Below, one piece after another: positions 5,038 through 45,435 of a stretch of DNA of 64,000 nt. Source of the DNA: an uncultured Thermoleophilia bacterium (GTDB lineage Bacteria > Actinomycetota > Thermoleophilia > UBA2241); assembly GCA_963747935.1 (NCBI GenBank), contig CAVVGY010000010.1, positions 131,951 to 195,950 on the forward strand, written 5' to 3'. The notes under the pieces were generated by a model. That model saw only the letters and a list, made by a program, of their open reading frames with translations. It ran no database searches and was not told the DNA's origin. Positions within the stretch are counted from its first letter, which is position 1; each line of letters starts with the position of its first letter. The position numbers were made by a program, and so were the translations under genes.

Positions 5038-5267
5038 GCAGCCTCCTCTGCGCCGGTCGGGCACTGGCTCGGCGACTGCCTCCCTCCAGGGCAGAGGTGG
5101 AGGGCCCGGACCGGTCGGTCGTTCCCGGCGCCCCTGCGGGGCGTCTCTCTTCCCCATGATACGTAGGTGTGCCCCGGGCCACAATCGAGGGGGTCCGCCG
5201 CGAGAGTACGCGGAGCAGAGCGGCGAGGGAGCGGGGCTGCCGATGGCGCGGAGACCAAGCGCTCCAT

Positions 5268-5376
5268 GAGGTAGGTGCGTTGACCCTACGTACGTCTGAA
5301 CGTACGTCCAAGCACCCCATGGGGCTTCCGGACGTACGCTTGGACGTACGCATCCGGAACGCACTACCCCTGCCGG
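5268..5376. repeat. Repeat family A copy 1: roughly 110-bp palindrome-rich intergenic element (GGACGTACGTCC … CCCCATGGGG … GGACGTACG)
   Basis: Homologous copies lie at about 19953, 36238 and 40366. All start GAGGTAKGTG/GAGTAGTGTG and contain the CCCCATGGGG and GGACGTACG palindromes. Confidence 0.7.
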
Positions 5377-11634: not shown

Positions 11635-12248
11635 TCACCCGCCGATCAGGCGGCGCGCCGTGACGGCGCCGCTCAGGCCGTCGTAACTCACGACCTTGCC
11701 GGAGCTCGGCGCCTCGATGATGCGCCCGCGCCCGGCGTACATGGCCACGTGGTAGTAGTAGCCGGAGCCGCCCCAGAACACGAGGTCACCGACCTTGAGG
11801 TGACGCAGCGAGACGCGGGCGCCGCTGCGGGCCTGGTCGGTGGCGCCGTGCGGCAGACCGCGGCCGATGTGGCGGTAGACGTACATCGTGAACCCGGAAC
11901 AGTCGAAGCCGCCGCGCGAGGCGCCGCCCCACACGTAGGGGACGCCGAGCTGCTTGCGGGCGACCCGCAACACCTCGTCGCGGAGCCGCTGCCAGCGGGC
12001 GCGCTGCCGGGCGAGACGCCGCGCACGGATGCGCGCCCGCCTCTGCGCCTTGGTCAGCCTGGGTGCGGCGGGCGTTGCCGTCGGCGGGGCGAGGGCGAGG
12101 GGTTCGGTGAGAGCGTGCCCACCGGGGACGGCGACTGAGCCGGCGACGGCGTCGCCGAAGGCTCGGCGAGGAGCGCGCCGGGGACGAGCAGGAGGGTCAG
12201 GAGGGCTGCAAGGGAGATGAGACCTCCGACCAGGCGAGTGGGGTGCAT
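11635..12248 (-). CDS. Secreted NlpC/P60 (C40) cell-wall peptidase with a signal peptide and Arg-rich coiled-coil; apparent frameshift between the signal peptide and the linker (about 12060-12160)
   Basis: C40 domain VPYVWGGASRGGFDCSGF…H. The upstream in-frame stretch RRARIRARRLARQRARWQRLRDEV is coiled-coil-like. The signal peptide MHPTRLVGGLISLAALLTLLLVPGALLA starts at 12248 but lies in another frame. Confidence 0.65.
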
Positions 12249-12426: not shown

Positions 12427-12524
12427 GATCGGAGCCCCATGCGGCGCCGCAACAGGCCCAGATCGGGCTCCCGATGGGGCTCCGGATGAGGCTCCGGATT
12501 GGGCTCCGACCCCCGAGACGACAG
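12427..12524. repeat. Repeat family B copy 1 (terminal core GGGCTCCGACCCCCGAGACGAC)
   Basis: Shares the GGCTCCGGAT units and the GGGCTCCGACCCCCG end with copies at about 14769 and 45240. Confidence 0.55.
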
Positions 12525-13790: not shown

Positions 13791-14816
13791 ATGACACTCG
13801 CAGCTACCACCACCACCGACTACCAGAGACCGCGCCTCGACGTCGGCCTCGCCTTCAAGAAGGGCTGGCACGCCTTCACCTCCGACATCGTGCCGTTCCT
13901 GGTCGGCGCCCTGATCGCCGGCATCCTCTCGGTGATCACGCTCGGCATCCTGGCCGGGCCGCTCACCGCCGGGCTCTACAACATGGCGGTCCGCCGCCTG
14001 CGCGACGGCCGCCGCGCCGAGATCGGCGACGTGTTCTCCTGCTTCGACAGGTTCTGGAGCTACCTCTGGGCCGCGATCGTCCTGGTGGTCCTGATCGGAC
14101 TCGCCTCCCTGACCATCGTCGGCGGCGTGCTGCTGGCGACGATCTGGATCTACGTGTTCCCGTTCATGGTCGACCGCAGGATGGGCCTCGGCGAGGCCAT
14201 GTCCGCCAGCTACCACCGCGTCGTGGACAACGGCTTCTGGGAGCACCTGGCGCTGATCGTGGTCTTCTTCGCCGTCAGTGCGGTCGCCAACGGCTGGGTC
14301 GGGATCATCACCACCCCGTTCACCATCGCCGTGATCGTCGGCGCGTACTTCGCCACTCGCGACTACGAGCGCCAGTACGTCGCGGCGCCGGCGGGCCCCG
14401 CCACGCTGCCGCCGGCTCCTCTGGCCGCTCCCGAGCCCCCGGCGCCGATGCAGACCGCCATCGCCGAGGCGCCCGCCGCGCCGATCACTCCGGCCGCGCC
14501 GACCGCCGAGGTCGAGGAGACCGAGACCGCCGTCGAGACGACGCAGGCGACCGAGGTCGCTCCCGCGGCCGAGGCCGACGAGACGGCTGAGGCGACTGAG
14601 CCGGCCGAAGCAGCCGGAGAAGGCCGACGAGGCCGGCGAGCCGAAGGCCTGACGCCGGCACGGCCGGAGGTCACGGCCACAGAAGCCGGACGGGCCCGGC
14701 GGAGGCACTGCGCCTCCGCCGGGCCCGTCCGCGTATCAGGCCTCCGCGCTCATCCCGGGGAGTATGAGCGCCCCGGGGTGGGCGCCTCTTCCGGAGCCTC
14801 TTCCGGTGCCACATGA
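13791..14816 (+). CDS. Integral membrane protein with an acidic Ala/Pro/Glu-rich C-terminal tail (C-terminus uncertain; alternative stop near 14650)
   Basis: Several hydrophobic helices (LVGALIAGILSVITLGILAGPL…, LIVVFFAVSAV…). Confidence 0.45.
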   Translation: MTLAATTTTDYQRPRLDVGLAFKKGWHAFTSDIVPFLVGALIAGILSVITLGILAGPLTAGLYNMAVRRLRDGRRAEIGDVFSCFDRFWSYLWAAIVLVVLIGLASLTIVGGVLLATIWIYVFPFMVDRRMGLGEAMSASYHRVVDNGFWEHLALIVVFFAVSAVANGWVGIITTPFTIAVIVGAYFATRDYERQYVAAPAGPATLPPAPLAAPEPPAPMQTAIAEAPAAPITPAAPTAEVEETETAVETTQATEVAPAAEADETAEATEPAEAAGEGRRGRRAEGLTPARPEVTATEAGRARRRHCASAGPVRVSGLRAHPGEYERPGVGASSGASSGAT

Positions 14817-14860
14817 GGCTCCGGATCCGGCACCCGATTGGGCTCCGACCCCCGAACGAC
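14769..14860. repeat. Repeat family B copy 2
   Basis: CTCTTCCGGAGCCTCTTCCGGTGCCACATGAGGCTCCGGAT…GGGCTCCGACCCCCGAACGAC. Confidence 0.55.
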
Positions 14861-19952: not shown

Positions 19953-20062
19953 GGAGTAGTGTGCATTCGGCTCACGTACCTCTGGACGTACGTCCAAACG
20001 CCCCATGGGGTTTCCGGACGTACGCTTGGGCGTGCACGTGACGCCCAGCGAAGCACCCCGCC
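19953..20062. repeat. Repeat family A copy 2
   Basis: GGAGTAGTGTGCATTCGGCTCACGTACCTCTGGACGTACGTCCAAACGCCCCATGGGGTTTCCGGACGTACGCTTGGGCGTGCACG…. Confidence 0.7.
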
Positions 20063-20073
20063 CGGCCGCCGCT

Positions 20074-20766
20074 TCACTCCTCCTTGCCGGTCCGGTCCGG
20101 AGGCGGGGTGATCGGCACGCGGTGGCGCTCGTCGAACGCCGCCGAGTGCGTGTAGCGGTAGAGCCGCGCGTAGAGCGGCGAGACGAGGCCGTTCAGGAGC
20201 GCCCAGCCGGCGAAGACGACCAGCAGCAGCGCCTGGGCGGCGAGCGGGGCGAGGCCGCCGGCGGCGGACGCAGCGCCTCCGCCGGCCCCTCCCTCGCCGC
20301 CGCCCTGCGCCAGCTGCGCGGCGAGCGCCAGAGCCAGCGAGGCGACGATGGCCATCCAGTAGTCGAGCGGCAGGCGCCAGAGCCAGCGGCCGTGCCACCA
20401 CACGTTGCCCGGCCGGAAGCGGCGCCAGCCGTAGGCCGGGTTGAGCAGGAACCAGAGGAAGTCCCAGATGGCGCTCCACGAGACCCAGGCGGCGAGCAAC
20501 GCCAGTTCCCTCGCCGCCGTCCACGGCGCGCCGAAGGCGAACGGCAGGTGGAAGAAGACCAGCGTCGCCGCGAACATCAGCAGGTTGTAGCCGGTGAGCG
20601 GCTTGCCGGCGAGCACCAGGCCGAAGAGGCGGGCCAGCGGCCCGCTCACCCGGTACGGGGTCGGCAGCTTCTCGGCCCAGCCGTAGGGCCCCTCGATCTC
20701 GATCTCGACGAGCGCGAGCACGAGGGCGAGGACGCAGAGCAGCGGCGCGGCGACGGCGAACGTCAC
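20074..20766 (-). CDS. Hypothetical Trp-rich integral membrane protein, co-directional with the upstream glycosyltransferase
   Basis: GTG start (VTFAVAAPLLCVLALVLALV…). Multiple transmembrane helices and a W-rich loop GWRRFRPGNVWWHGRWLWRLPLDYW. Confidence 0.4.
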   Translation of the reverse strand: MTFAVAAPLLCVLALVLALVEIEIEGPYGWAEKLPTPYRVSGPLARLFGLVLAGKPLTGYNLLMFAATLVFFHLPFAFGAPWTAARELALLAAWVSWSAIWDFLWFLLNPAYGWRRFRPGNVWWHGRWLWRLPLDYWMAIVASLALALAAQLAQGGGEGGAGGGAASAAGGLAPLAAQALLLVVFAGWALLNGLVSPLYARLYRYTHSAAFDERHRVPITPPPDRTGKEE

Positions 20767-20879
20767 GCCGGCGCCCCCGCGGCGGAGCCGGAGTCGCTGC
20801 GCGTGGCCCGGTGCGGCCTGCGCTTGCGCGCCGCTCCGGACTCCACGCGCGCGAGCTGCTCGCGCAGCGCGGCGAGCGC

Positions 20880-21897
20880 CTCGGTGTTGCCGTCCTGGCT
20901 GTAGCCCTCGGAGCCGCCGCTCGTGGTCGGGGATGCGCTCGAGGAAGCGAGGACGGCGTCCTCTGACGGGCGCCTCGGCGTACTCGCCGTACCCGAGGCG
21001 CTCCAGGTACCGCGCGTTGAGCGTCTGCTCGAACTGGCCGGCGACCGGGATCGAGAGCGCCGGCTTGTGCAGGTACACGCACTCGGAGAGCAGCGAGAAC
21101 CCGCCGCCGGCGATCACACCGCGCGCGGTGCGCAGGTCGTCGAGGAACCCGGCCTCGCTGAAGGGCCGGTAGACCAGCCGGCCGTCGACGAGGTCCTCGG
21201 TGAGGTCGCGGCGCACACCGTAGAGCCGGCAGGGCAGCCCGGTCTTGTGCAGCGTGCGGACCAGGGTCTCGCTGCCGGCCGCCGTCTGGTACACGAGCAG
21301 GTGCTCGCCCGGCTCGGACTCGGCGGCGAGCACGGCCTCTCGCAGCACCGGCGCCACCAGCGTGGTGGCCTGGCGCCGCAGCGGCGGGCGGAAGAACGTC
21401 GGCACGATCGCCCAGTGCAGCCCCGCGGCCTTGGTGCGGGCGATCTGCCGCGCCAGCTCGAAGTCCAGGGTGTCGCCGCCGATGATGCCCTCGTCGTGCC
21501 GGCAGCGGTCGAGCATCATGATGTTGTCCACGCTGATGGCCGGCACGCGCTCGCGGTGCGCGACCGTGAGCACGAACGACTCGAAGTCGCTGACCACCAC
21601 ATCGGGCTCGAAGTCGCGCGCCACCTCGTAGAAGCTCCGCACCTGCGCGGGCCACCGGCTCACGGCGCCGCGCAGGTTCTGCGTCACCGTCTCCCAGCGC
21701 CTGATGGCGTTGTCCTCGTAGGCCAGCGAGAACCCGAGGATCTCGCGCACCTCGGGGAAGTGCTGCGCGAGGTAGTCGTGCGCGCGCCCGGAGGCGACGA
21801 CGAGCACGTCGTGCTCGCCGACGAGGTCGGCAAGAAACGCGTGCGAGCGGGTGGCGTGGCCCATGCCCTCACCGGCCACGCCGTACAGGATCCGCAC
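20880..21897 (-). CDS. GT1/GT28-type glycosyltransferase (MGT-like); 3' end uncertain, probably frameshifted
   Basis: GTG start after GAAGGAGGG. N-terminal VRILYGVAGEGMGHATR (the G-x-G-H motif of GT1) and C-terminal GGGFSLLSE…PALSIPVAGQFEQ. Confidence 0.6.
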
Positions 21898-22023
21898 CGG
21901 GCCCTCCTTCTTCGTGCTGTGGAGGCCGGCGGCCACACGCCGGCCGGCCCGTGCAGACTCTACCCGCCCCGGCCCGTTCTCGCGCTGGCCGGGCTCACCG
22001 GTGCAGGGTAGGGTTCGGAGACA

Positions 22024-23295
22024 GTGCAGTACGCGCAGACCCTCAACGACTACAGCCCCGGCCGCCGCACGGCCATCATCGGGACCCTCGGCGCGCTCGG
22101 GACCATCGCGCCGTTCTCCATCGACCTGTACCTCCCCGCGCTCCCGACCCTCGGCAGCGACCTCGGCGCGTCCCAACAGCAGGTCGCCGTCACCGTGACC
22201 ATGTTCCTGCTCGGCCTGGCGGTCGGGCAGCTGCAGGCCGGCGCACTGAGCGACACCCACGGGCGACGCGTGCCGCTGCTGGCCGGCCTGCTCCTCTTCA
22301 CGCTGGCGAGCCTGGCCTGCGCGCTCGCGCCGAACGTCCAGGTGCTGATGGCCGCCCGGTTCCTGCAGGGACTGGGCGGGGCGGCCGGGATGGCCATCTC
22401 GAACGCGTCCGTGACCGACTACGCCCGCGGCCGCGAGGCCGCGCGTCTGCTGAGCCGCCTCGCCATGATCGGCGGCGTCGCGCCCGTCATCGCACCGCTG
22501 ATCGGCGGCCAGCTGCTGCGCGTCGTCTCGTGGCGGGGGCTGTTCTTCGTGCTCACCGGCATCGGGCTCGCGCTGTTCGTCGGCGTGCTCGCCGGGCTGC
22601 CCGAGAGCCTGCCGCGCGAGCGGCGCTCCGCTGCCGGCGCCCGGGCCCTGCTCCGCAGTCTCCTCACGATCTCCCGCGACCTGGGCTTCCTCGGCCTCGC
22701 GCTCGCCGGCGCGTTCAGCTTCGCGGGGTTCTTCGCCTACCTGGCCGGCTCGTCGTTCGTCTACCAGGACGTGTACGGCGTGTCGCCGGCGGCGTTCAGC
22801 GTGCTGTTCGCGATCAACGCGGTGGGCATGCTCGGGGCGAACCAGCTCAACCACCGGCTGCTCGCCCGACACTCGCCGCAGCGGCTCCTCGCCGCCGCCC
22901 TGGTCGTGAACCTCGCCGCCGGCGCGGCCGCCCTCGCCGTGCTCCTCGCCGGCGGTCTCCCGATCTGGGTCCTCGCCGCGCCGCTGTTCGTGCTCGTGGC
23001 CAGCGTAGGGCTCATCATCCCGAACTCCACGGCCCTGGCGCTCTCGCTCCACCCGGACGCCGCGGGGACCGCCTCGGCGTTCCTGGGCACGCTCCGGCTC
23101 GGCCTCGGCGCCCTGGCGACCCCGCTCGTCGGCCTCGGGGGCGGCATGGACGGCGTCTCCATGGGCCTCGTCATCGCGGTGGCCGGCGCGCTGGCGCTCG
23201 CGACGTTCGCGGTCGTCATGTGGCGTGAGCGCAGCCTCAGGGACGCGTCCTGCGAGTACACGCCAGGCACCTGCGCAGACATGACCGTCTGTTGA
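22024..23295 (+). CDS. Bcr/CflA-family MFS drug-efflux transporter
   Basis: 423 aa with 12 predicted transmembrane helices and the DTHGRR and PESLPRER motifs. Confidence 0.8.
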   Translation: MQYAQTLNDYSPGRRTAIIGTLGALGTIAPFSIDLYLPALPTLGSDLGASQQQVAVTVTMFLLGLAVGQLQAGALSDTHGRRVPLLAGLLLFTLASLACALAPNVQVLMAARFLQGLGGAAGMAISNASVTDYARGREAARLLSRLAMIGGVAPVIAPLIGGQLLRVVSWRGLFFVLTGIGLALFVGVLAGLPESLPRERRSAAGARALLRSLLTISRDLGFLGLALAGAFSFAGFFAYLAGSSFVYQDVYGVSPAAFSVLFAINAVGMLGANQLNHRLLARHSPQRLLAAALVVNLAAGAAALAVLLAGGLPIWVLAAPLFVLVASVGLIIPNSTALALSLHPDAAGTASAFLGTLRLGLGALATPLVGLGGGMDGVSMGLVIAVAGALALATFAVVMWRERSLRDASCEYTPGTCADMTVC

Positions 23296-24569
23296 GCCGC
23301 CTGGACGCCACCACGCCGTTCGATCGCTTCACCCCCGGCCGCCGCGCCGGCATCATCCTCATCTTCGGCGGCCTCTGGACCCTGGGGTCGTTCGCGACCG
23401 ACCTCTTCCTGCCGGCGATGCCCGCGGCGGCCAAAGCCCTCGGCGCGTCCGATTCCGCCGTGGCTCTCAGCGTCACCACCTTCCTGATCGGCCTGGGGCT
23501 GGGCCAGCTGATCGCCGGACCGGTCAGCGACGGGCGCGGCCGGCGGCCGACCCTGCTCGTCGGGCTGGCGGTCTTCATCGCCACAGCGGTCGTCTGCATC
23601 GTCGCGCCGTCGGTGGAGCTGCTCATCGCGATGCGCCTGATCCAGGGCATGGCCGCCGCCTTCGGCCTCGCGATCCCCAACGCCATGGTCACCGACTACG
23701 CGCGCGGTCGCGAGGCCGCCCGGCTCTTCTCCTGGATCGTGATCATCGGCGGCGTGGCGCCGCTGGTGGCTTCGCTGGCCGGCGCCCAGATGCTCCGGCT
23801 GCTGGGCTGGCGCGGGCCGTTCGTCGCGCTGACCGCGATCAGCGTCGTCGCCCTCGTGTGCGTCGCCCTCTGGCTGCCGGAGAGCCTGCCGCGCGAGCGA
23901 CGACTCACCGGCGGCCTGCGCACGGCGCTCCGTACCATGGCCGGCCTGACTCGAGACGGCCGCTTCATGGGCTACACCTTCACCGGCGCCTTCATCTACA
24001 TGGCCTTCTTCGCCTACCTGGGCGGCTCCTCGTTCGTCTTCCAGCACCAGTACGGCATCTCACCGACCACCTACAGCATCCTGTTCGCCGTCAACGCGCT
24101 GGGGATGCTGGCTGCGGGCCAGGCGAACCACCGCCTCCTGGCCCGCTTCTCCCCGCGGACGCTGCTCAACGCCGCCCTCATCGCCTTCACGGTCGCCGGC
24201 ATGGCCGTCCTGTTCTCGGCGCTGACCGGCGCGTTCGGCATCTGGGGCCTTGCGGTGCCGTTCTTCGTGATCGTCGCCGGCATGGGCGTCATCCTGCCCG
24301 ACTTGACCGCGCTGGCGCTCTCGCTCCATCCCGAGGTGGCGGGGACGGCGTCCGCCTACTTCGGCGGCCTCCGGCTCGGCCTGGGCGCGCTGGCGATGCC
24401 GCTGATCGGCGTCGGCGGCACAGTCACGGCGACGTCCACGGGGCTCCTGATCGCCGTTTCGGCGCTCGCCGCTCTCGCTCTCTTCTGGGTCACGGCGCGC
24501 CGCGCCCGGGACCAGCAGGTCCTGCTCGACCTCCCCGAGGAGAAGTCGTCGGACGTGCCGGTGGCGTGA
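23292..24569 (+). CDS. Bcr/CflA-family MFS transporter, tandem paralog of the preceding gene
   Basis: TTG start overlapping the upstream stop (TTGA). Same motifs in the same positions (DGRGRR, PESLPRER, DYARGREAARL). Confidence 0.75.
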   Translation: MSRLDATTPFDRFTPGRRAGIILIFGGLWTLGSFATDLFLPAMPAAAKALGASDSAVALSVTTFLIGLGLGQLIAGPVSDGRGRRPTLLVGLAVFIATAVVCIVAPSVELLIAMRLIQGMAAAFGLAIPNAMVTDYARGREAARLFSWIVIIGGVAPLVASLAGAQMLRLLGWRGPFVALTAISVVALVCVALWLPESLPRERRLTGGLRTALRTMAGLTRDGRFMGYTFTGAFIYMAFFAYLGGSSFVFQHQYGISPTTYSILFAVNALGMLAAGQANHRLLARFSPRTLLNAALIAFTVAGMAVLFSALTGAFGIWGLAVPFFVIVAGMGVILPDLTALALSLHPEVAGTASAYFGGLRLGLGALAMPLIGVGGTVTATSTGLLIAVSALAALALFWVTARRARDQQVLLDLPEEKSSDVPVA

Positions 24570-29080: not shown

Positions 29081-29282
29081 ACGTCCCCCTGGAATGACGT
29101 ACGTTGGTCGGTGCTACGAGCCGGCGCCGGATCCCCACCCGCGCGCCGTCCCTCGGCTCACACCATCGACCACCTCCTCCGTGCAGCCCGGCATGGCACC
29201 CAGGGTGCATAAGATGCGGAAGATCTCCTTAGGCGCATGCTACGGCCATGCGTGGACGTGTCAAGGCTGACACGCCATGATC

Positions 29283-30258
29283 TCAGCGGACGCGGAAGGC
29301 CGCCCAGGCGGAGACGGCGCCGGGGACCGAGGCCCGTGCCCGGAACGCGCCGGCCGAGCGCGGCCGGTACGGCCACCCGTAGGCGCCGGTGGCGCCGGTC
29401 GCGCGCAACGAGCTCGCCGCGGTCCTCCAAGCGCCTTTGACGCGGCGCTGCACGACGACCCGCACCTGCGCCGCGGCGCCGGCCGGCGTCAGCCGGCCGG
29501 TGAGCTGCACGCGGCGACCCAGCTTGAGCACGCTCTGCGATGCCGCGAGCGTGACGGCCGGCGGCAGCGGAGGCTCCGGCCGCAGGACGACGAAGCCGGC
29601 GGCGCTCGTGGCCACACCGCCGGCGCTGAGCACCGTCACCGGGCCGGAGACGGCCGCCTCCGGCACGGTCGCGGCGATCACCACGTCTGATACGACGGCG
29701 AAGGAGGCGTTGACGCCGCCGAAGCGGACGATGGCCGCCCACGTGAACTTGGCACCCGTGAGCGTCACGCTCGCCCCGGGGGCCGCGGACGCCGGCGTCA
29801 CCGCGTCCAGGCGTGGAGCCGGCACCGTGTGGTGCGCGCTGCCGGCCGACTCCGCGGCGGACTTCGTGACGGAGTGGCACGTGGTGCAGCCGGAGGGCGC
29901 ACCGGCGTGAGCGGCGTGCCGGAACTCGGCGCCGCCGCGCAGGTGGCACGTCGAGAGGCAGGACGCATCTGAACGCGCCCAGTCCATGTCCTGGCCGGGG
30001 GCGTGGCATGTCCAGCACACCTCCGCCGGTGCGGACGAGCTGGTACCCGGAGTGACAGCTGAAGCAGACTTCGCTGACGGGCGTTCTCTTGGTGTGGGCG
30101 TTCTCGTGGCAGGTCTCGCAGTCGCTGATCCCGCCATGCTGGTAGGCCTCGTAGGCGCCTGCCGCACCGGGCGCCAGCACGAGGACGAAGAGGGCGAGCG
30201 CCGCGAAGACCGCGGCCGGCAGGTACCGGTGCGGCCGGCGCTGCGCTTCGTGTCTCAC
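29283..30258 (-). CDS. Secreted multiheme c-type cytochrome (about 5 CxxCH motifs) with a C-terminal Ig-like domain; apparent frameshift near 30030
   Basis: GTG start after GGAGAGAGAGG; signal peptide AAVFAALALFVLVLAPGAAGA. Motifs CETCH and CFSCH (N-terminal frame); CWTCH, CLSTCH and CTTCH (29283..30167 frame). Confidence 0.6.
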
Positions 30259-30405
30259 GTGAACCTCTCTCTCCTGCCGCTGTGTTCCCCGTACGGTCCG
30301 CGACCTGGGTGTGGTCACAGAGGTGGGGCCGCGGCGGGACGAAGTGTCCGCCGCGGCCCCGGTCCTGCCGGCCGGCGTCAAGTCGCCGGCCGTGTCTGCG
30401 TCAGC

Positions 30406-32646
30406 CTACCGCACGCACTTGATGGTGATCTTGGCGCTGTACAGATCCGTAGCGGCTGAACCGGAACGGACCCACTTCACCTTGTAGTTCTTGTAGGTCT
30501 TGGAGACCTTGAACGTGAAGGCGAAGTTGCCGGTGGCGTCCGAAAGCGTGGTACCGATGACGGTGGAGCCACGCATGAGGACGACCTTGGCGCCGGTCGC
30601 GGCGGACTTGTCGCCGTTGACGATACGGCCGGCCACGTGCCCGTTGTGGTTCTTCTTGACGGGCGACTTGGCGGCGGCGTGCGTGAAGTAGCCGCCGACC
30701 GAGCGAGCTTCCTGCTCGGCCTTGCGCAGGCCGGCCATGATGTACCGCGGGTTGTGGACGCTACCGGAGGCGTCGTTCTCGTACGCCTTGTAGTTCCACG
30801 TCGCGCGGCCGACGAGCACGTAGCCCGGCTTGGAGCTGTCGGTGGCGGAGAACTCGCTCTTGGTCTTGGCCGTGGTGATGGCCGCGACCACAGCGGCAGC
30901 CTGCTCTTCAGCAGCCGTCTGCCACTCGTCGATGTTCGCCTGCAGCTCGTCGCGCGTGCGGCTCGGATGGCAGGTGGAGCAGGAGTCCTGACCGGCCGTG
31001 TACTTGGCCTCGGCCTGCCACTTCTCGGCGTCGCCCGGAAGCATCGGCTTCATGCCGTGCGAGATGCGGGTCTCGGCCTTGTTGGTCTTGGGCATGTGGC
31101 AGTCTTCGCACGCCGCGCCCGGCATGTACTCGTTGCCGTTGGCAACGTCCACATGACGCTGCGGGCGTGCAGGTTCTCGCGCTGCGGGTGGCTCGCGCCG
31201 CCGTGGGCGGAGAGGTCGGCCATCGGCACCGGGTTCGGGGTGGTGCCGAGGACTTCCATCTGCCAGTTGTGGCAGTCCTCGCAGATGCTCTGGTTGGAGA
31301 CGGTGAGGCCCTTGGCGCTGCGCTCGCCGGCCTGGTCGGGCTCGCGGACGACGTCTTCGGAGCCGACTGCGGACGGGTGACCGTTGTGGCAGGTGATGCA
31401 CTCCTGGCCCATCTTGCCGACGTTGTCCTTGGTCAGGACGAAGTCCTGGGCGATCGGGTCGCCCTTGGACTGCAGGTAGCCCTCGCCGGTGTGGCACTTG
31501 TAGCAACCGGGCAGTATTGGCGTCGAACATGTTGTTCGAGTAGTGGCCGTTGCCCGCCGCCTGGAACGCCATCGCGTCCGGGTCGGTCGTCGTGAGGCCG
31601 CGCGGTAGGAGTGCGCGGAGGCCGCCCACTCGTTGTAGTAGTAGTGGTTGCCCTTGGCGTTGCTGCCGTTCGGGATACATCCAGTAGGTCGTCGGTGCGA
31701 GAGCGAACTCGTCCTCCGACGGGATCTTGGTGTACGACTGGCCACCGCTCGACGCCGTTGATGTCGACGAAGTCGCGCATCTTCAGGTTGGTGGTGTAGC
31801 CGTAGATGCCGAGCGTGGTGCCCAGGTTGGTGTAGCTGCCGTGGCACTGGCCGCAGACCTGGGACTGGCCCAGGACGTCGAGGCTGCCGGAGATGTTCAC
31901 GTTGGTGTTGGTGTGGCCGTTCACGGCGTCGTACTGGCCGGTGCCGTGGCACTGCTCGCACTGGATGCCGAGGCCGGGGTACGAGACGGTCGGCGTCGGT
32001 CATGAAGTCGTTGACCGTCTTGGACTCGTCACGCGCCCACTGCACGCGGTGCCCGGCGTCGCCGCGACGGTCGCGGCGGGGTTCGGGACGGACTTGCCGG
32101 TGGCGCCCTTCATGGTCGGTGCCGAGCATGTGGCAGCGCTGGCAGCTGTAGGTCACGTCCCAGAGGCCCGTCGTCGCCGTCGCCGACGACCCACTCGCCG
32201 CTGGGCTCCCAGACGAGACCCTCGACGAGGTTCCACGGCATGACGGTCGGGATCGCTGGACTGCCGTTGAAGAACAGGTACTCGGTGGCGGATTGCCGGA
32301 TCGGCCGCGCCGAGCGTGACCCACGGAAGCTGTTGATGCTGTAGATGCCGCCCTGGGAGTAGACCTGGCCGGTGGCCGTAGGTCCGACCTGCGGGATGTC
32401 GCCGGCCGCGCTGAAGTTCGTCCAGTTGACGGGCGGCGCCGGGTTGACGCCGGCGGTCGCGAACGCGCCGTGGAGGGCGGACGTGACCTTGAGGTCGCCA
32501 GACATCTTGCTGTGGCAGTCGAGGCACTTCGCCTGGCCGGCGAAGTGCATGCCGTATTCGTTTGTGAGAGTCGCGGACGCCAGAGCTGGCAGCACGAGCA
32601 TGCCGATCAGGGCGACCACGAGCAGAATGAAGATCTTCTTCCCCAT
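30406..32646 (-). CDS. Large secreted multiheme c-type cytochrome (at least 8 CxxCH motifs) with a C-terminal carboxypeptidase-regulatory-like beta domain; several apparent frameshifts
   Basis: ATG at 32646 after GAAGAGGAG; signal peptide MGKKIFILLVVALIGMLVLPALASA. CLDCH, CQRCH, CGQCH, CYKCH, CITCH, CEDCH (twice) and CSTCH are spread over three frames. The C-terminus is GNFAFTFKVSKTYKNYKVKWV. Confidence 0.6.
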
Positions 32647-36149: not shown

Positions 36150-36237
36150 GCGCGGAGCGCCAGGGCAGAGCGCGGCGGCGCCTGAGCGCGGCGCAGCGGC
36201 GACATCCATCCGCGAGTGGGTCCGGCCCCGGGGGATT

Positions 36238-36348
36238 GAGGTATGTGCGATGCGGTCACGTACCTCCAGGCGTACGTGCAGGAGCCCCATGGGACGTCCG
36301 GACGTACGCCTGGACGTACTCCGCCCCGACGCACTACCTTCTCGCCGG
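36238..36348. repeat. Repeat family A copy 3
   Basis: GAGGTATGTGCGATGCGGTCACGTACCTCCAGGCGTACGTGCAGGAGCCCCATGGGACGTCCGGACGTACGCCTGGACGTAC…ACGCACTACCTTCTCGCCGG. Confidence 0.7.
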
Positions 36349-40295: not shown

Positions 40296-40385
40296 CCTCC
40301 GGCGTGAGGCATGCACCTCCGGCGTTGGGTCCGCGCCGTCCAGCGTGAGTGCGCCCTCTCGGCGTGAGGTATGTCCCTCCCGCCT
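40296..40385. repeat. Imperfect 20-40-bp direct repeats (CCTCYSGGCGTGAGGYATG), three or four copies, abutting repeat A copy 4
   Basis: GCGCCTCCGGCGTGAGGCATGCA / CCTCCGGCGTTGGGTCC…CCAGCGTGAGTGCGC / CCTCTCGGCGTGAGGTATGTC. Confidence 0.45.
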
Positions 40386-40470
40386 GCGTACGTGCAAGCG
40401 TACGTCCAAACACCCCATGGGGCTTCTGGACGTACGCTTGGACGTACGTGTCCGAACAGGACATATGACC
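40366..40470. repeat. Repeat family A copy 4
   Basis: GAGGTATGTCCCTCCCGCCTGCGTACGTGCAAGCGTACGTCCAAACACCCCATGGGGCTTCTGGACGTACGCTTGGACGTACGTG. Confidence 0.7.
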
Positions 40471-40557
40471 GCGGGCGCCGTCGGCGCCGTGCGGGCCCCG
40501 GCGCGAGCCGGTACGGCGGAAGCCGGGGACGCGCGAACCGGGGCGGCCGGCGAAGCT

Positions 40558-41667
40558 CTAGAAGCGGCCGCCGATCCAGGCGCCGCTGATGGAGCCGTAC
40601 TGCACCACGGTGCCGGTGTGCGGCGCGTGGATCATGCTGCCGCCGCCGACGTAGATGCCGACGTGGTGGCTGTAGCTCGCATTGCCGAAGAACACGAGGT
40701 CACCGGGCTGCAGCGCGTTCAGCGGGACGGGCTTGCTGGCGCGCTGCTGGTCGGTGGCGCCATGCGAGAGGCCGATGCCGATCTGCGCGTAGCAGTACAT
40801 GGTGAGGCCGCTGCAGTCGAAGCCGCTCGGGCTGGCGCCGCCCCACACGTAGGGCACGCCGAGGTAGCGCTGGGCGATGGCCACGACGGCCGAGTGGCCG
40901 GAGCCGCCCGGGTCGACGACGGTGCCGCCGCCCCCGCCGCCGCCGGAACTCGACGACGAGCTGGAACCGCCGGAAGAGGAGGAGCCGGAGGAGGACGAGT
41001 TGTCCGCCACGGCGGCGGCTCTGGCGGCCTCCGCCTTGGCCTTGGCGGCCGCGGCGGCCTTGGCCTCCAGGTCCGCGATCTCACTCTTGAGCCCACCCGC
41101 GGTGCCCTCGAGCTGGGCCTGGAGCGAGAGCACCTGCTCCTTGCTCTTCTCGCGCTCGGCGACCAGCTTGGCCGCGGACTTGCGGTCGGCCTCCAGCGCG
41201 ATGCGCCGGTCGTCGATCTCCTGGCGGTACACGTCCGCGACGCGCGCGGTCCTGGCGTCGTTCTCCGTCATGCGCTGCATCACGTCGAGCTGGGTGAGCA
41301 GGTCGTCGAAGGTGCGGGAAGCGAAGATCACGTCGAGGATGCCGGCGCTGTCGGCCTTGTAGACCTGCTTGGCGCGCGCCGTGAGGTGGTCGTTGGCCAC
41401 CTCGAGCTTGTACTCGGCCACCTTGAGCAGGTGACTGGTGCGTACCGATGCGGTCCTGCACATCCTTGAGCCGCGAGGCGGCCGCGTTGTAGCGCTCCAC
41501 GGCCATGTCGGACTGCTCGTAGACCTTGCTGAGCTGCGCCTGCACGGCCGCCAGCCTGGCCTTCTTCGCGGCGATGGGTCCCGCCGACGCGACGGCGGAG
41601 CAGACGAGGAGCAGCGTGAGCGCTATGAGTACGGCGAACGTCGCCTTGCGGATGGGGGTCAAGCGGA
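40558..41667 (-). CDS. RipA-like secreted NlpC/P60 peptidase with a long coiled-coil and a Ser/Gly linker; apparent 1-nt indel near 41445
   Basis: TTG start after GAAGGAGG; signal peptide FAVLIALTLLLVCSAVASA; coiled-coil. C40 domain VPYVWGGASPSGFDCSGL…H. The N-terminal segment (41463..41667) is in another frame. Confidence 0.65.
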
Positions 41668-45239: not shown

Positions 45240-45435
45240 GGGGGTCGGAGCCTTATCCGGAGCCTCTTGCGGCACCCCATGCGGTGCCACTTCCGGAGCC
45301 CCTTGTGGCACTCTATCCGGAGGCTTGTCCGGTGCCTCTTGTGGCACCACATGCGGCGCCACTTCCGGAGCCTCTTGCGACACCACATCCGGCGCCGCAG
45401 AGGGCTCCGGTTCGGGCTCCGACCCCCGGACACAC
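45240..45435. repeat. Repeat family B copy 3: MITE-like element with terminal inverted repeats (GGGGGTCGGAGCC … GGCTCCGACCCCC) and five internal tandem repeats of about 30 bp
   Basis: Internal unit CTTCCGGAGCCTCTTGYGGCACCMCATGCGGYGCCA repeated. The ends are reverse complements of each other. Confidence 0.65.

Follow-up and report, generated by a model that had tools for sequence, protein, structure and literature searches.

A family of dispersed palindromic intergenic repeats with hairpin potential in uncultured Actinomycetota and Thermoleophilia

The window analysed here, i.e. the whole 64-kb stretch of DNA from an uncultured, high-GC actinobacterial MAG, contains four homologous, imperfect palindromes of about 105-110 bp, every one of them intergenic, and 13 further copies, confirmed by a covariance model, are present in other genomes and metagenomes (n = 17 in total). 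With moderate confidence we regard these sequences as a non-coding, non-autonomous palindromic family of the REP/REPIN/MITE kind that spreads by insertion and is tolerated, or used, at the 3' ends of genes. The family appears to be undescribed, whereas its kind, i.e. the small dispersed REP/MITE hairpin repeat, is well known.

In the window, a repeat search returned the copies as one family (D3) with four members of 102 nt and 70-76% identity, and an nhmmer profile built from these four located them again with E-values of 4e-32 to 5e-28 (w1 to w4, Table 1). No fifth copy was found in the 64 kb by nhmmer, and the covariance-model search agrees. The core pattern CCCCATGGGNNNNCNGGACGTACGC has eight matches in the window, corresponding to both arms of all four copies, at a chance expectation of 0.03, and the sequences flanking the copies are mutually unrelated. 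Repeat search, nhmmer and covariance model are thus unanimous in placing four homologous intergenic copies where a sequence-only reading of this DNA had noticed them.

Table 1. Positions of the four copies in the window, of parts of copy w1 and of the neighbouring genes
Feature	Position	Strand	Context or sequence
Copy w1	5267..5376	+	37 nt from the stop of a DsbA-like gene (5413, minus strand)
w1, other side	5037	minus	Promoter and leader of the NuoF-like/FdhA-like operon; position is that of the start ATG
w1, centre	5315-5324		CCCCATGGGG
w1, inner 12-mers	5298-5309 and 5330-5341		
w1, outer 12-mers	5286-5297 and 5342-5353		
w1, termini	5270-5279; 5360-5368		GGTAGGTGCG; CGCACTACC
Copy w2	19954..20060	+	14 nt past the stop (20074) of a ~225-aa gene on the minus strand
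w2, other side	19835		Start of an MFS transporter gene, 119 nt from the copy; copy upstream of MFS
Copy w3	36237..36343	+	88 nt past the stop (36149, plus strand) of a dimethylglycine-dehydrogenase-like gene
w3, other side	36426		Beta-lactamase-like gene, 83 nt downstream of the copy
Copy w4	40365..40474	+	84 nt past the stop (40558, minus strand) of an NlpC/P60 gene
w4, other side	about 40120		True start of fmt (307 aa); copy 245 nt upstream

The window has a G+C content of 72%, and as a consequence the raw list of open reading frames is full of artefacts; the real genes were defined by GC3-filtered ORFs in combination with Pfam. By Pfam, the gene contexts that had been assigned to the four copies are correct and need only two refinements, i.e. 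the NuoF-like gene truly starts at ATG 5037, as comparison with relatives indicates, and 20074 marks the end of a gene of its own, ~225 aa in length and downstream of the glycosyltransferase gene. As had been proposed, the long ORFs running through the copies are artefacts, and in the case of w1 this results from the start of the NuoF-like gene at ATG 5037. For annotation, the element thus explains spurious long ORFs and N-terminal extensions in a GC-rich window, and true gene boundaries are marked, e.g. the start of the NuoF-like gene and the split of the ORF at 20074-23052. The latter, a 992-aa ORF on the minus strand, is an artefact as judged from relatives, in which a ~380-aa glycosyltransferase of the MJ1255/VC2487 type is followed by a separate gene of ~225 aa, the one that ends at 20074 in the window. 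Neither the immediate neighbours of the copies nor the annotated part of the window (~0-42 kb) include a transposase or recombinase gene. Two pairs of paralogues were observed, namely NlpC/P60 genes at 11635-11973 and 40558-41463 with 71% nucleotide identity over 285 nt (D4), and tandem MFS transporter genes at 22024-23295 and 23292-24569 with ~70% nucleotide identity and an overlap of 4 nt. The region 29158-32324 has a lower GC content (0.67) and long minus-strand ORFs with weak matches to multihaem cytochromes c, contains no genes that pass the GC3 filter, and may be foreign DNA.

Each copy is a near-perfect inverted repeat centred on CCCCATGGGG, a palindrome that had been attributed to all four copies and that reads CCCCATGGGA in w3. 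Each arm consists of two units of ~12 nt with a self-complementary CGTACG core, lying about 12-13 nt apart, and the inner pair is separated by ~31 bp; taken alone, the individual 12-mers are not extended palindromes. The ends form a degenerate terminal inverted repeat, GGGGTAKGT...ACMTACCCC, which most copies have at a distance of about 48-55 nt from the centre. Some of the motifs quoted in the sequence-only reading hold for a part of the copies: GGACGTACGTCC is perfect in w2 only (19984-19995) and is represented by GAACGTACGTCC, GGCGTACGTGC and AGCGTACGTCC in the others; w4 starts with GAGGTATGTC and not with the quoted motif ending in GTG; and the end ACGCACTACC, claimed for three copies, occurs in w1 and w3, its counterparts being GCGAAGCACC in w2 and GGACATATGACC in w4. 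The palindrome GGACGTACGC is found in all four copies, as described. The outer stem of w4 is ATGTCC/GGACAT. Among the window copies, w2 has the most degenerate right outer end.

The motif GGTAG or GGTAT occurs at one end or at both in w1-w4 and in the external copies L005, L012, L018, L026 and L007, whereas this motif is absent or degenerate in L004, L008, L017 and L019. Conservation is highest in the centre of the element and lower in the termini, in which it differs from typical MITEs and REPINs: GGACGTACG and CCCCATGGG vary little or not at all among 17 copies from several lineages, although for the external copies this conservation is partly due to ascertainment, as the centre served as search pattern. 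In terms of core identity, w1, w2, w4 and L005 cluster at 78-87%, whereas w3, the most divergent copy of the window (73-76% to the others over the core), is nearer to L021 and L002, which suggests that at least two subfamilies exist within the source genome.

Both as RNA and as single-stranded DNA, the element can form a single long hairpin from either strand. RNA folding, which had been proposed as a check, yields, for either strand, energies of -50 to -64 kcal/mol and z-scores between -2.5 and -7.0; the z-scores of the single-stranded DNA folds range from -4.8 to -6.8. Over 31 symmetric pairs ~79% of the cells are paired (79.5% for 14 copies), as compared to 20-47% (20-45% for 14 copies) in a control in which the partner is slid by 1-3 columns. 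Cells with changes on both sides amount to 27 in the set of 14 copies and to 42 in the set of 17, versus 15.6 +/- 3.1 and 25.0 +/- 4.3 in the respective shuffles, with 0 out of 500 shuffles reaching the observed number in either set, bearing in mind that related sequences can exceed shuffles without any structure. Evidence that is independent of this caveat comes from the w1 site, where the outer 12-mer pair CGTACGTCC/GGACGTACG of the window is replaced by GAGCACTACC/GGTGGTGCTC in L026 and L027 and a 13-bp helix is still formed. Thus, a conserved structure, the lack of which the sequence-only reading had listed against its own proposal, is present, i.e. a long hairpin with pairing kept by compensatory change. 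At sites shared between relatives the element has an identity of 0.64-0.72 (shuffles: 0.51 +/- 0.02), whereas the flanking spacers have 0.38-0.57, mostly equal to the shuffles (0.38-0.47 versus 0.38-0.46). For the arms beyond about 32 nt from the centre the cognate score of 6.04 does not differ significantly from the non-cognate one (5.51 +/- 1.37), so that the outer stem is weak except where the terminal repeat is intact. Copy-specific covariation of the outer stems across copies was dropped on account of this equal pairing of cognate and non-cognate arms; the compensatory change between w1 and its orthologues in L026/L027 is unaffected.

Neither strand is preferred by the hairpin. The non-Watson-Crick cells comprise 36 G-U on the model strand, 47 A-C, which correspond to G-U on the other strand, and 42 others, i.e. 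there is no wobble bias, and folding energies do not consistently favour the transcribed strand. With respect to their flanking genes, the copies w1, w2, w4 and L005 are oriented one way and w3, L026 and L027 the opposite way. At the w1 site the apex is even inverted between the window and L026, with an identity of 0.89-0.90 if flipped versus 0.68-0.75 if compared directly, reflecting either an in-place inversion of the part between the arms or two separate insertion events at this site. The lack of wobble bias, the inconsistent stable strand and the variable orientation speak for a symmetric element at the DNA level rather than a strand-specific RNA. Any effect of the element as RNA would be orientation-independent.

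The 13 further copies (L002, L004, L005, L007, L008, L012, L017, L018, L019, L021, L026, L027 and L030) stem from uncultured Actinomycetota, Thermoleophilia and one Eisenbacteria MAG, and the family is therefore not confined to the window, the other outcome that had been listed against a dispersed element. A scan of 185,579 species-representative (GTDB) genomes with a strict pattern, which some true copies fail and which thus sets a lower bound, revealed true homologues in three MAGs with one copy each: L002 from Thermoleophilia, 40 nt after glmS; L004 from the Eisenbacteria MAG, on a 1.7-Mb contig; and L005 from Actinomycetes. A looser pattern gave 15 places in JGI metagenomes, of which seven are true homologues, and the copies in L026, L027 and L030 were obtained by fetching relatives via the flanking proteins. 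The copy number observed is hence four in 64 kb for the window and, by the strict pattern, at least one per genome elsewhere; one strict match per representative genome and 15 JGI places do not show the high copy number that characterises REPs and MITEs.

Each of the 17 copies has GC3-supported genes on both sides, and 16 of them are located 14-266 nt after a stop codon, the exception being L012, which lies between divergent genes. The neighbours are unrelated housekeeping genes, e.g. those for glmS, enolase, thioredoxin, an RseP-like protease, tag, threonine aldolase, a class I tRNA synthetase and others. Plasmid and phage collections (distant-mode blastn) gave no match and a scan of viral contigs gave 0 matches, and a phage or plasmid origin was rejected on these grounds. 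Searching the literature for the sequence as strings of 10-12 nt returned only unrelated primers and plant or animal motifs, and a search for REPIN/RAYT or MITE in Actinobacteria returned nothing on this element. Two of the loci carry known RNA elements in addition: in L002 a glmS ribozyme (1-125) lies upstream of glmS, and the contig of L018, which also bears the element, has a match of 54.5 bits to Rfam PYLIS_2, the pyrrolysine insertion element of mtbB, at 491-590 on the minus strand.

Comparison of insertion sites with relatives, proposed earlier as a further check, revealed that occupancy of the orthologous w1, w3 and w4 sites varies from genome to genome. At w1, L026 and L027 (FdhA-like protein 94-95% identical) have the element, whereas L028 and L029 (89% identical) lack it and have the same conserved promoter block 60-75 nt after the stop codon. 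For w2, an orthologous copy is present in L030 at about 11836-11966, whereas the junction in L031 is without the element and has an additional amine oxidase gene. L030, a close relative with flanking proteins that are 89-95% identical, has no copy at the w3 site, and the spacer there measures 45 nt instead of 241 nt. At w4, finally, L005 has a copy, and the site is empty in L006, L022, L023 and L024 (four loci in three genomes), L006 having a hairpin followed by a T run instead of the element. At E <= 1 the covariance model finds nothing in L006, L022-L025, L028, L029 and L031 (about 150 kb). No direct duplication of 2-10 bp was found beside the ends of any of the 17 copies, nor was a clean insertion boundary found in any of them, as filled and empty spacers are too diverged to be aligned. 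This pattern of presence and absence is what points to a putatively mobile element; the copies are 70-87% identical, i.e. old, and hence do not document recent transposition.

The closest known systems are REPINs, i.e. REP doublets that form hairpins and are mobilised by RAYT Y1 transposases, e.g. in Pseudomonas fluorescens SBW25 (PMC3116915; PMC5581495). Just like REPINs, the element is extragenic, about 100 bp long and without coding capacity or target-site duplication (PMC3116915; PMC5581495). These two papers on REPINs and RAYTs deal mainly with Pseudomonas and Enterobacteriaceae and do not mention Actinobacteria (PMC3116915, PMC5581495), whereas the hosts of the present element are uncultured Actinomycetota/Thermoleophilia and the one Eisenbacteria MAG. 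Common to both is also the arrangement of two conserved inverted units and a spacer giving a single long hairpin in single-stranded DNA or mRNA, the preservation of this hairpin by compensatory changes and the ability of copies to persist at orthologous sites. The motif GGTAG/GGTAT at the outer ends of many copies recalls the GTAG head of REPs. Nevertheless, full membership among the REPINs is opposed by several points: no RAYT gene is found among the neighbours examined, a high copy number is not shown by four copies in 64 kb, and the element is best conserved in its centre instead of at its two ends. A further difference is that each arm is built from two self-complementary 12-mers in tandem.

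Bacterial MITEs with hairpin potential, such as the Correia elements of Neisseria and the enterobacterial ERIC sequences, resemble the element in their terminal inverted repeats, their intergenic location near gene ends, their presence or absence between relatives and their size (100-150 bp for MITEs). In contrast to MITEs, the element lacks a target-site duplication, its degenerate termini are not as well conserved as its centre, and no parent insertion sequence with matching ends was found in the plasmid, phage and viral collections. The lack of target-site duplications counts against a DDE-type MITE. In their transcripts MITE hairpins can affect the 3' ends of mRNAs, and for high-GC Actinobacteria hairpin terminators without U-tract ('I-shaped') have been proposed. 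Similar to the latter, the element is a long GC-rich hairpin that follows stop codons at 14-170 nt and precedes the next promoter, and the canonical hairpin with T run that occupies the w4 site in L006 likens it to terminators by its place. However, I-shaped terminators are mutually non-homologous, whereas the copies of the element share their sequence across loci and lineages. Reading the sequence of w1-w4 directly revealed no U-tract or T run after the hairpin on either strand, so that classical intrinsic termination is unsupported for the four window copies.

Based on these findings we propose that the element spreads by insertion and is mobilised in trans by an enzyme encoded elsewhere. 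This enzyme might be of the single-strand-DNA type (HUH/RAYT or IS200/IS605) rather than a DDE transposase, as the absence of target-site duplications together with the dependence on a hairpin fits the former better. Once inserted at the 3' end of a gene, the element may simply be tolerated or may be retained through an effect of its hairpin, which, in a read-through transcript, could act as an orientation-independent barrier at the 3' end, i.e. as stabiliser or as terminator without U-tract. Given the position of the copies at the 3' ends of genes, such a role of the hairpin is plausible.

Instead of being a mobile repeat that is tolerated, the element might be a hairpin that is retained by the host and read by a dedicated protein, with selection acting on each copy, which would constitute a REPIN-like system outside the Pseudomonas and enterobacterial hosts covered by the two REPIN papers. 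Candidates for this protein are a RAYT-like single-strand-DNA enzyme that has been domesticated and a factor that binds RNA or DNA and recognizes the invariant GGACGTACG/CCCCATGGGG apex, and it would have to be common to uncultured Actinomycetota, Thermoleophilia and at least one Eisenbacteria lineage. The conservation of shared copies amid randomised spacers fits this explanation, as does the fact that copies at one orthologous site are oriented differently, but we nevertheless consider it doubtful. The main rival, a composite protein site on duplex DNA, in our opinion is unlikely as well. It assumes that four dimer-binding 12-mer palindromes and a central palindrome of 10-16 bp are bound by a conserved regulator or a nucleoid/chromosome-organising protein, the overall palindrome being a by-product of the site array. 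That the sequence itself and not pairing alone is most conserved (GGACGTACG and CCCCATGGG in the 17 copies) would be in line with such a site, but in the external copies the conservation of the centre is in part the ascertainment noted above; likewise, the 12-mers are regularly spaced (~12-13 bp apart, ~31 bp for the inner pair), but on their own they are not extended palindromes. Orientation independence and strand symmetry suit a site at the DNA level, as does the fact that shared copies are kept while their flanks are randomised. However, the changes in the outer 12-mers and spacers occur on both arms with the pairing being kept, which is nothing a duplex site needs, isolated GGACGTACGTCC-like sites in the window are not above chance (7 versus 4.95 expected, with 4 inside elements), the neighbouring genes have no function in common and the same genes lack the site in close relatives. 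A transcription-factor operator or regulon was rejected for similar reasons, i.e. functionally unrelated neighbours, relatives without the site and the replacement of the outer 12-mers in L026/L027.

Quite improbable is a strand-specific structured RNA, i.e. an sRNA gene or a cis-regulatory 3'- or 5'-UTR element expressed from one strand. The long stable hairpins with significant z-scores, the covariation in the stem and the UTR-like spacers between co-directional genes are what one would expect of such an RNA, but no Rfam family is matched at the gathering score, the G-U, A-C and other mismatches (36 versus 47 versus 42) favour neither strand, the more stable strand is not consistently transcribed, and the orientation differs among copies and, at the w1 site, between the window and L026/L027. 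In the Rfam searches there were 0 matches in the window at the gathering score and nothing relevant in six loci, and at E <= 10 two copies gave only miRNA-hairpin noise far below threshold; a known RNA family was rejected on this basis. Of the proposal that the repeat is a REP/MITE-like mobile or regulatory RNA element, the REP/MITE-like half thus holds in view of dispersal, kept hairpin pairing and variable occupancy, whereas the regulatory-RNA half does not, as there is no Rfam match and no G-U excess and the orientation to the flanking genes varies. Virtually no weight can be given to the idea that the copies arose by local duplication, or that GC-rich spacers resemble each other by chance, within this window only. 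The four copies do lie within 35 kb and all have plus-strand orientation, co-orientation having a chance of 1 in 8 and not being significant alone, but this explanation is already refuted by 13 homologues on unrelated contigs beside unrelated genes, by the count of the core pattern (8 versus 0.03 in shuffles) and by the unrelated flanks. Integron attC sites, CRISPR, parS and dif-like sites were dropped on anatomy, because of the spacing of 4-16 kb, the mixed gene orientations, the core-gene neighbours and the lack of a matching consensus.

As a REP/REPIN/MITE-like family, the element adds an apparently undescribed palindromic intergenic repeat to poorly known soil lineages. Its covariance model may serve as a probe in Actinomycetota, both for REPIN-like systems with a cognate enzyme and for hairpins that act as 3'-end signals without U-tract. 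To specialists in bacterial repeats the family would come as a surprise only if a cognate protein or a function of each copy were shown.

The window contains a second repeat family (D1), located at or just past gene ends (12442-12518, 14781-14857 and 45247-45431), which is composed of GGNGCC-type units with a periodicity of ~12 nt and ends in GGGCTCCGACCCCCG. The w2, w3 and w4 sites coincide with synteny breakpoints relative to L005, L006, L022, L023, L030 and L031. Exactly at these junctions relatives have additional or different genes: w2 has the amine oxidase gene as its counterpart, and at w4 there are genes for MFS or amidohydrolase proteins or a set of three others. L006 is devoid of the regions corresponding to 18.6-22 kb and 27.4-38.8 kb of the window. 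Next to w1, upstream of the NuoF-like/FdhA-like (molybdopterin oxidoreductase) operon, the block 5038-5190 on the minus strand consists of a promoter-like sequence, TTGTGG-N17-TATCAT, and a leader of ~115 nt with two GC-rich hairpins. This block is kept in L026-L029, whereas the surrounding spacer is not; Rfam gave no match at E <= 1, and the block could be an undescribed cis-regulatory leader. At 13-22 kb of L026-L029, genes for CODH/ACS (CdhC, CdhD) and prismane genes lie a few kb from the FdhA-like operon, and the presence of these genes in the relatives suggests a metabolism of the Wood-Ljungdahl type in this uncultured lineage.
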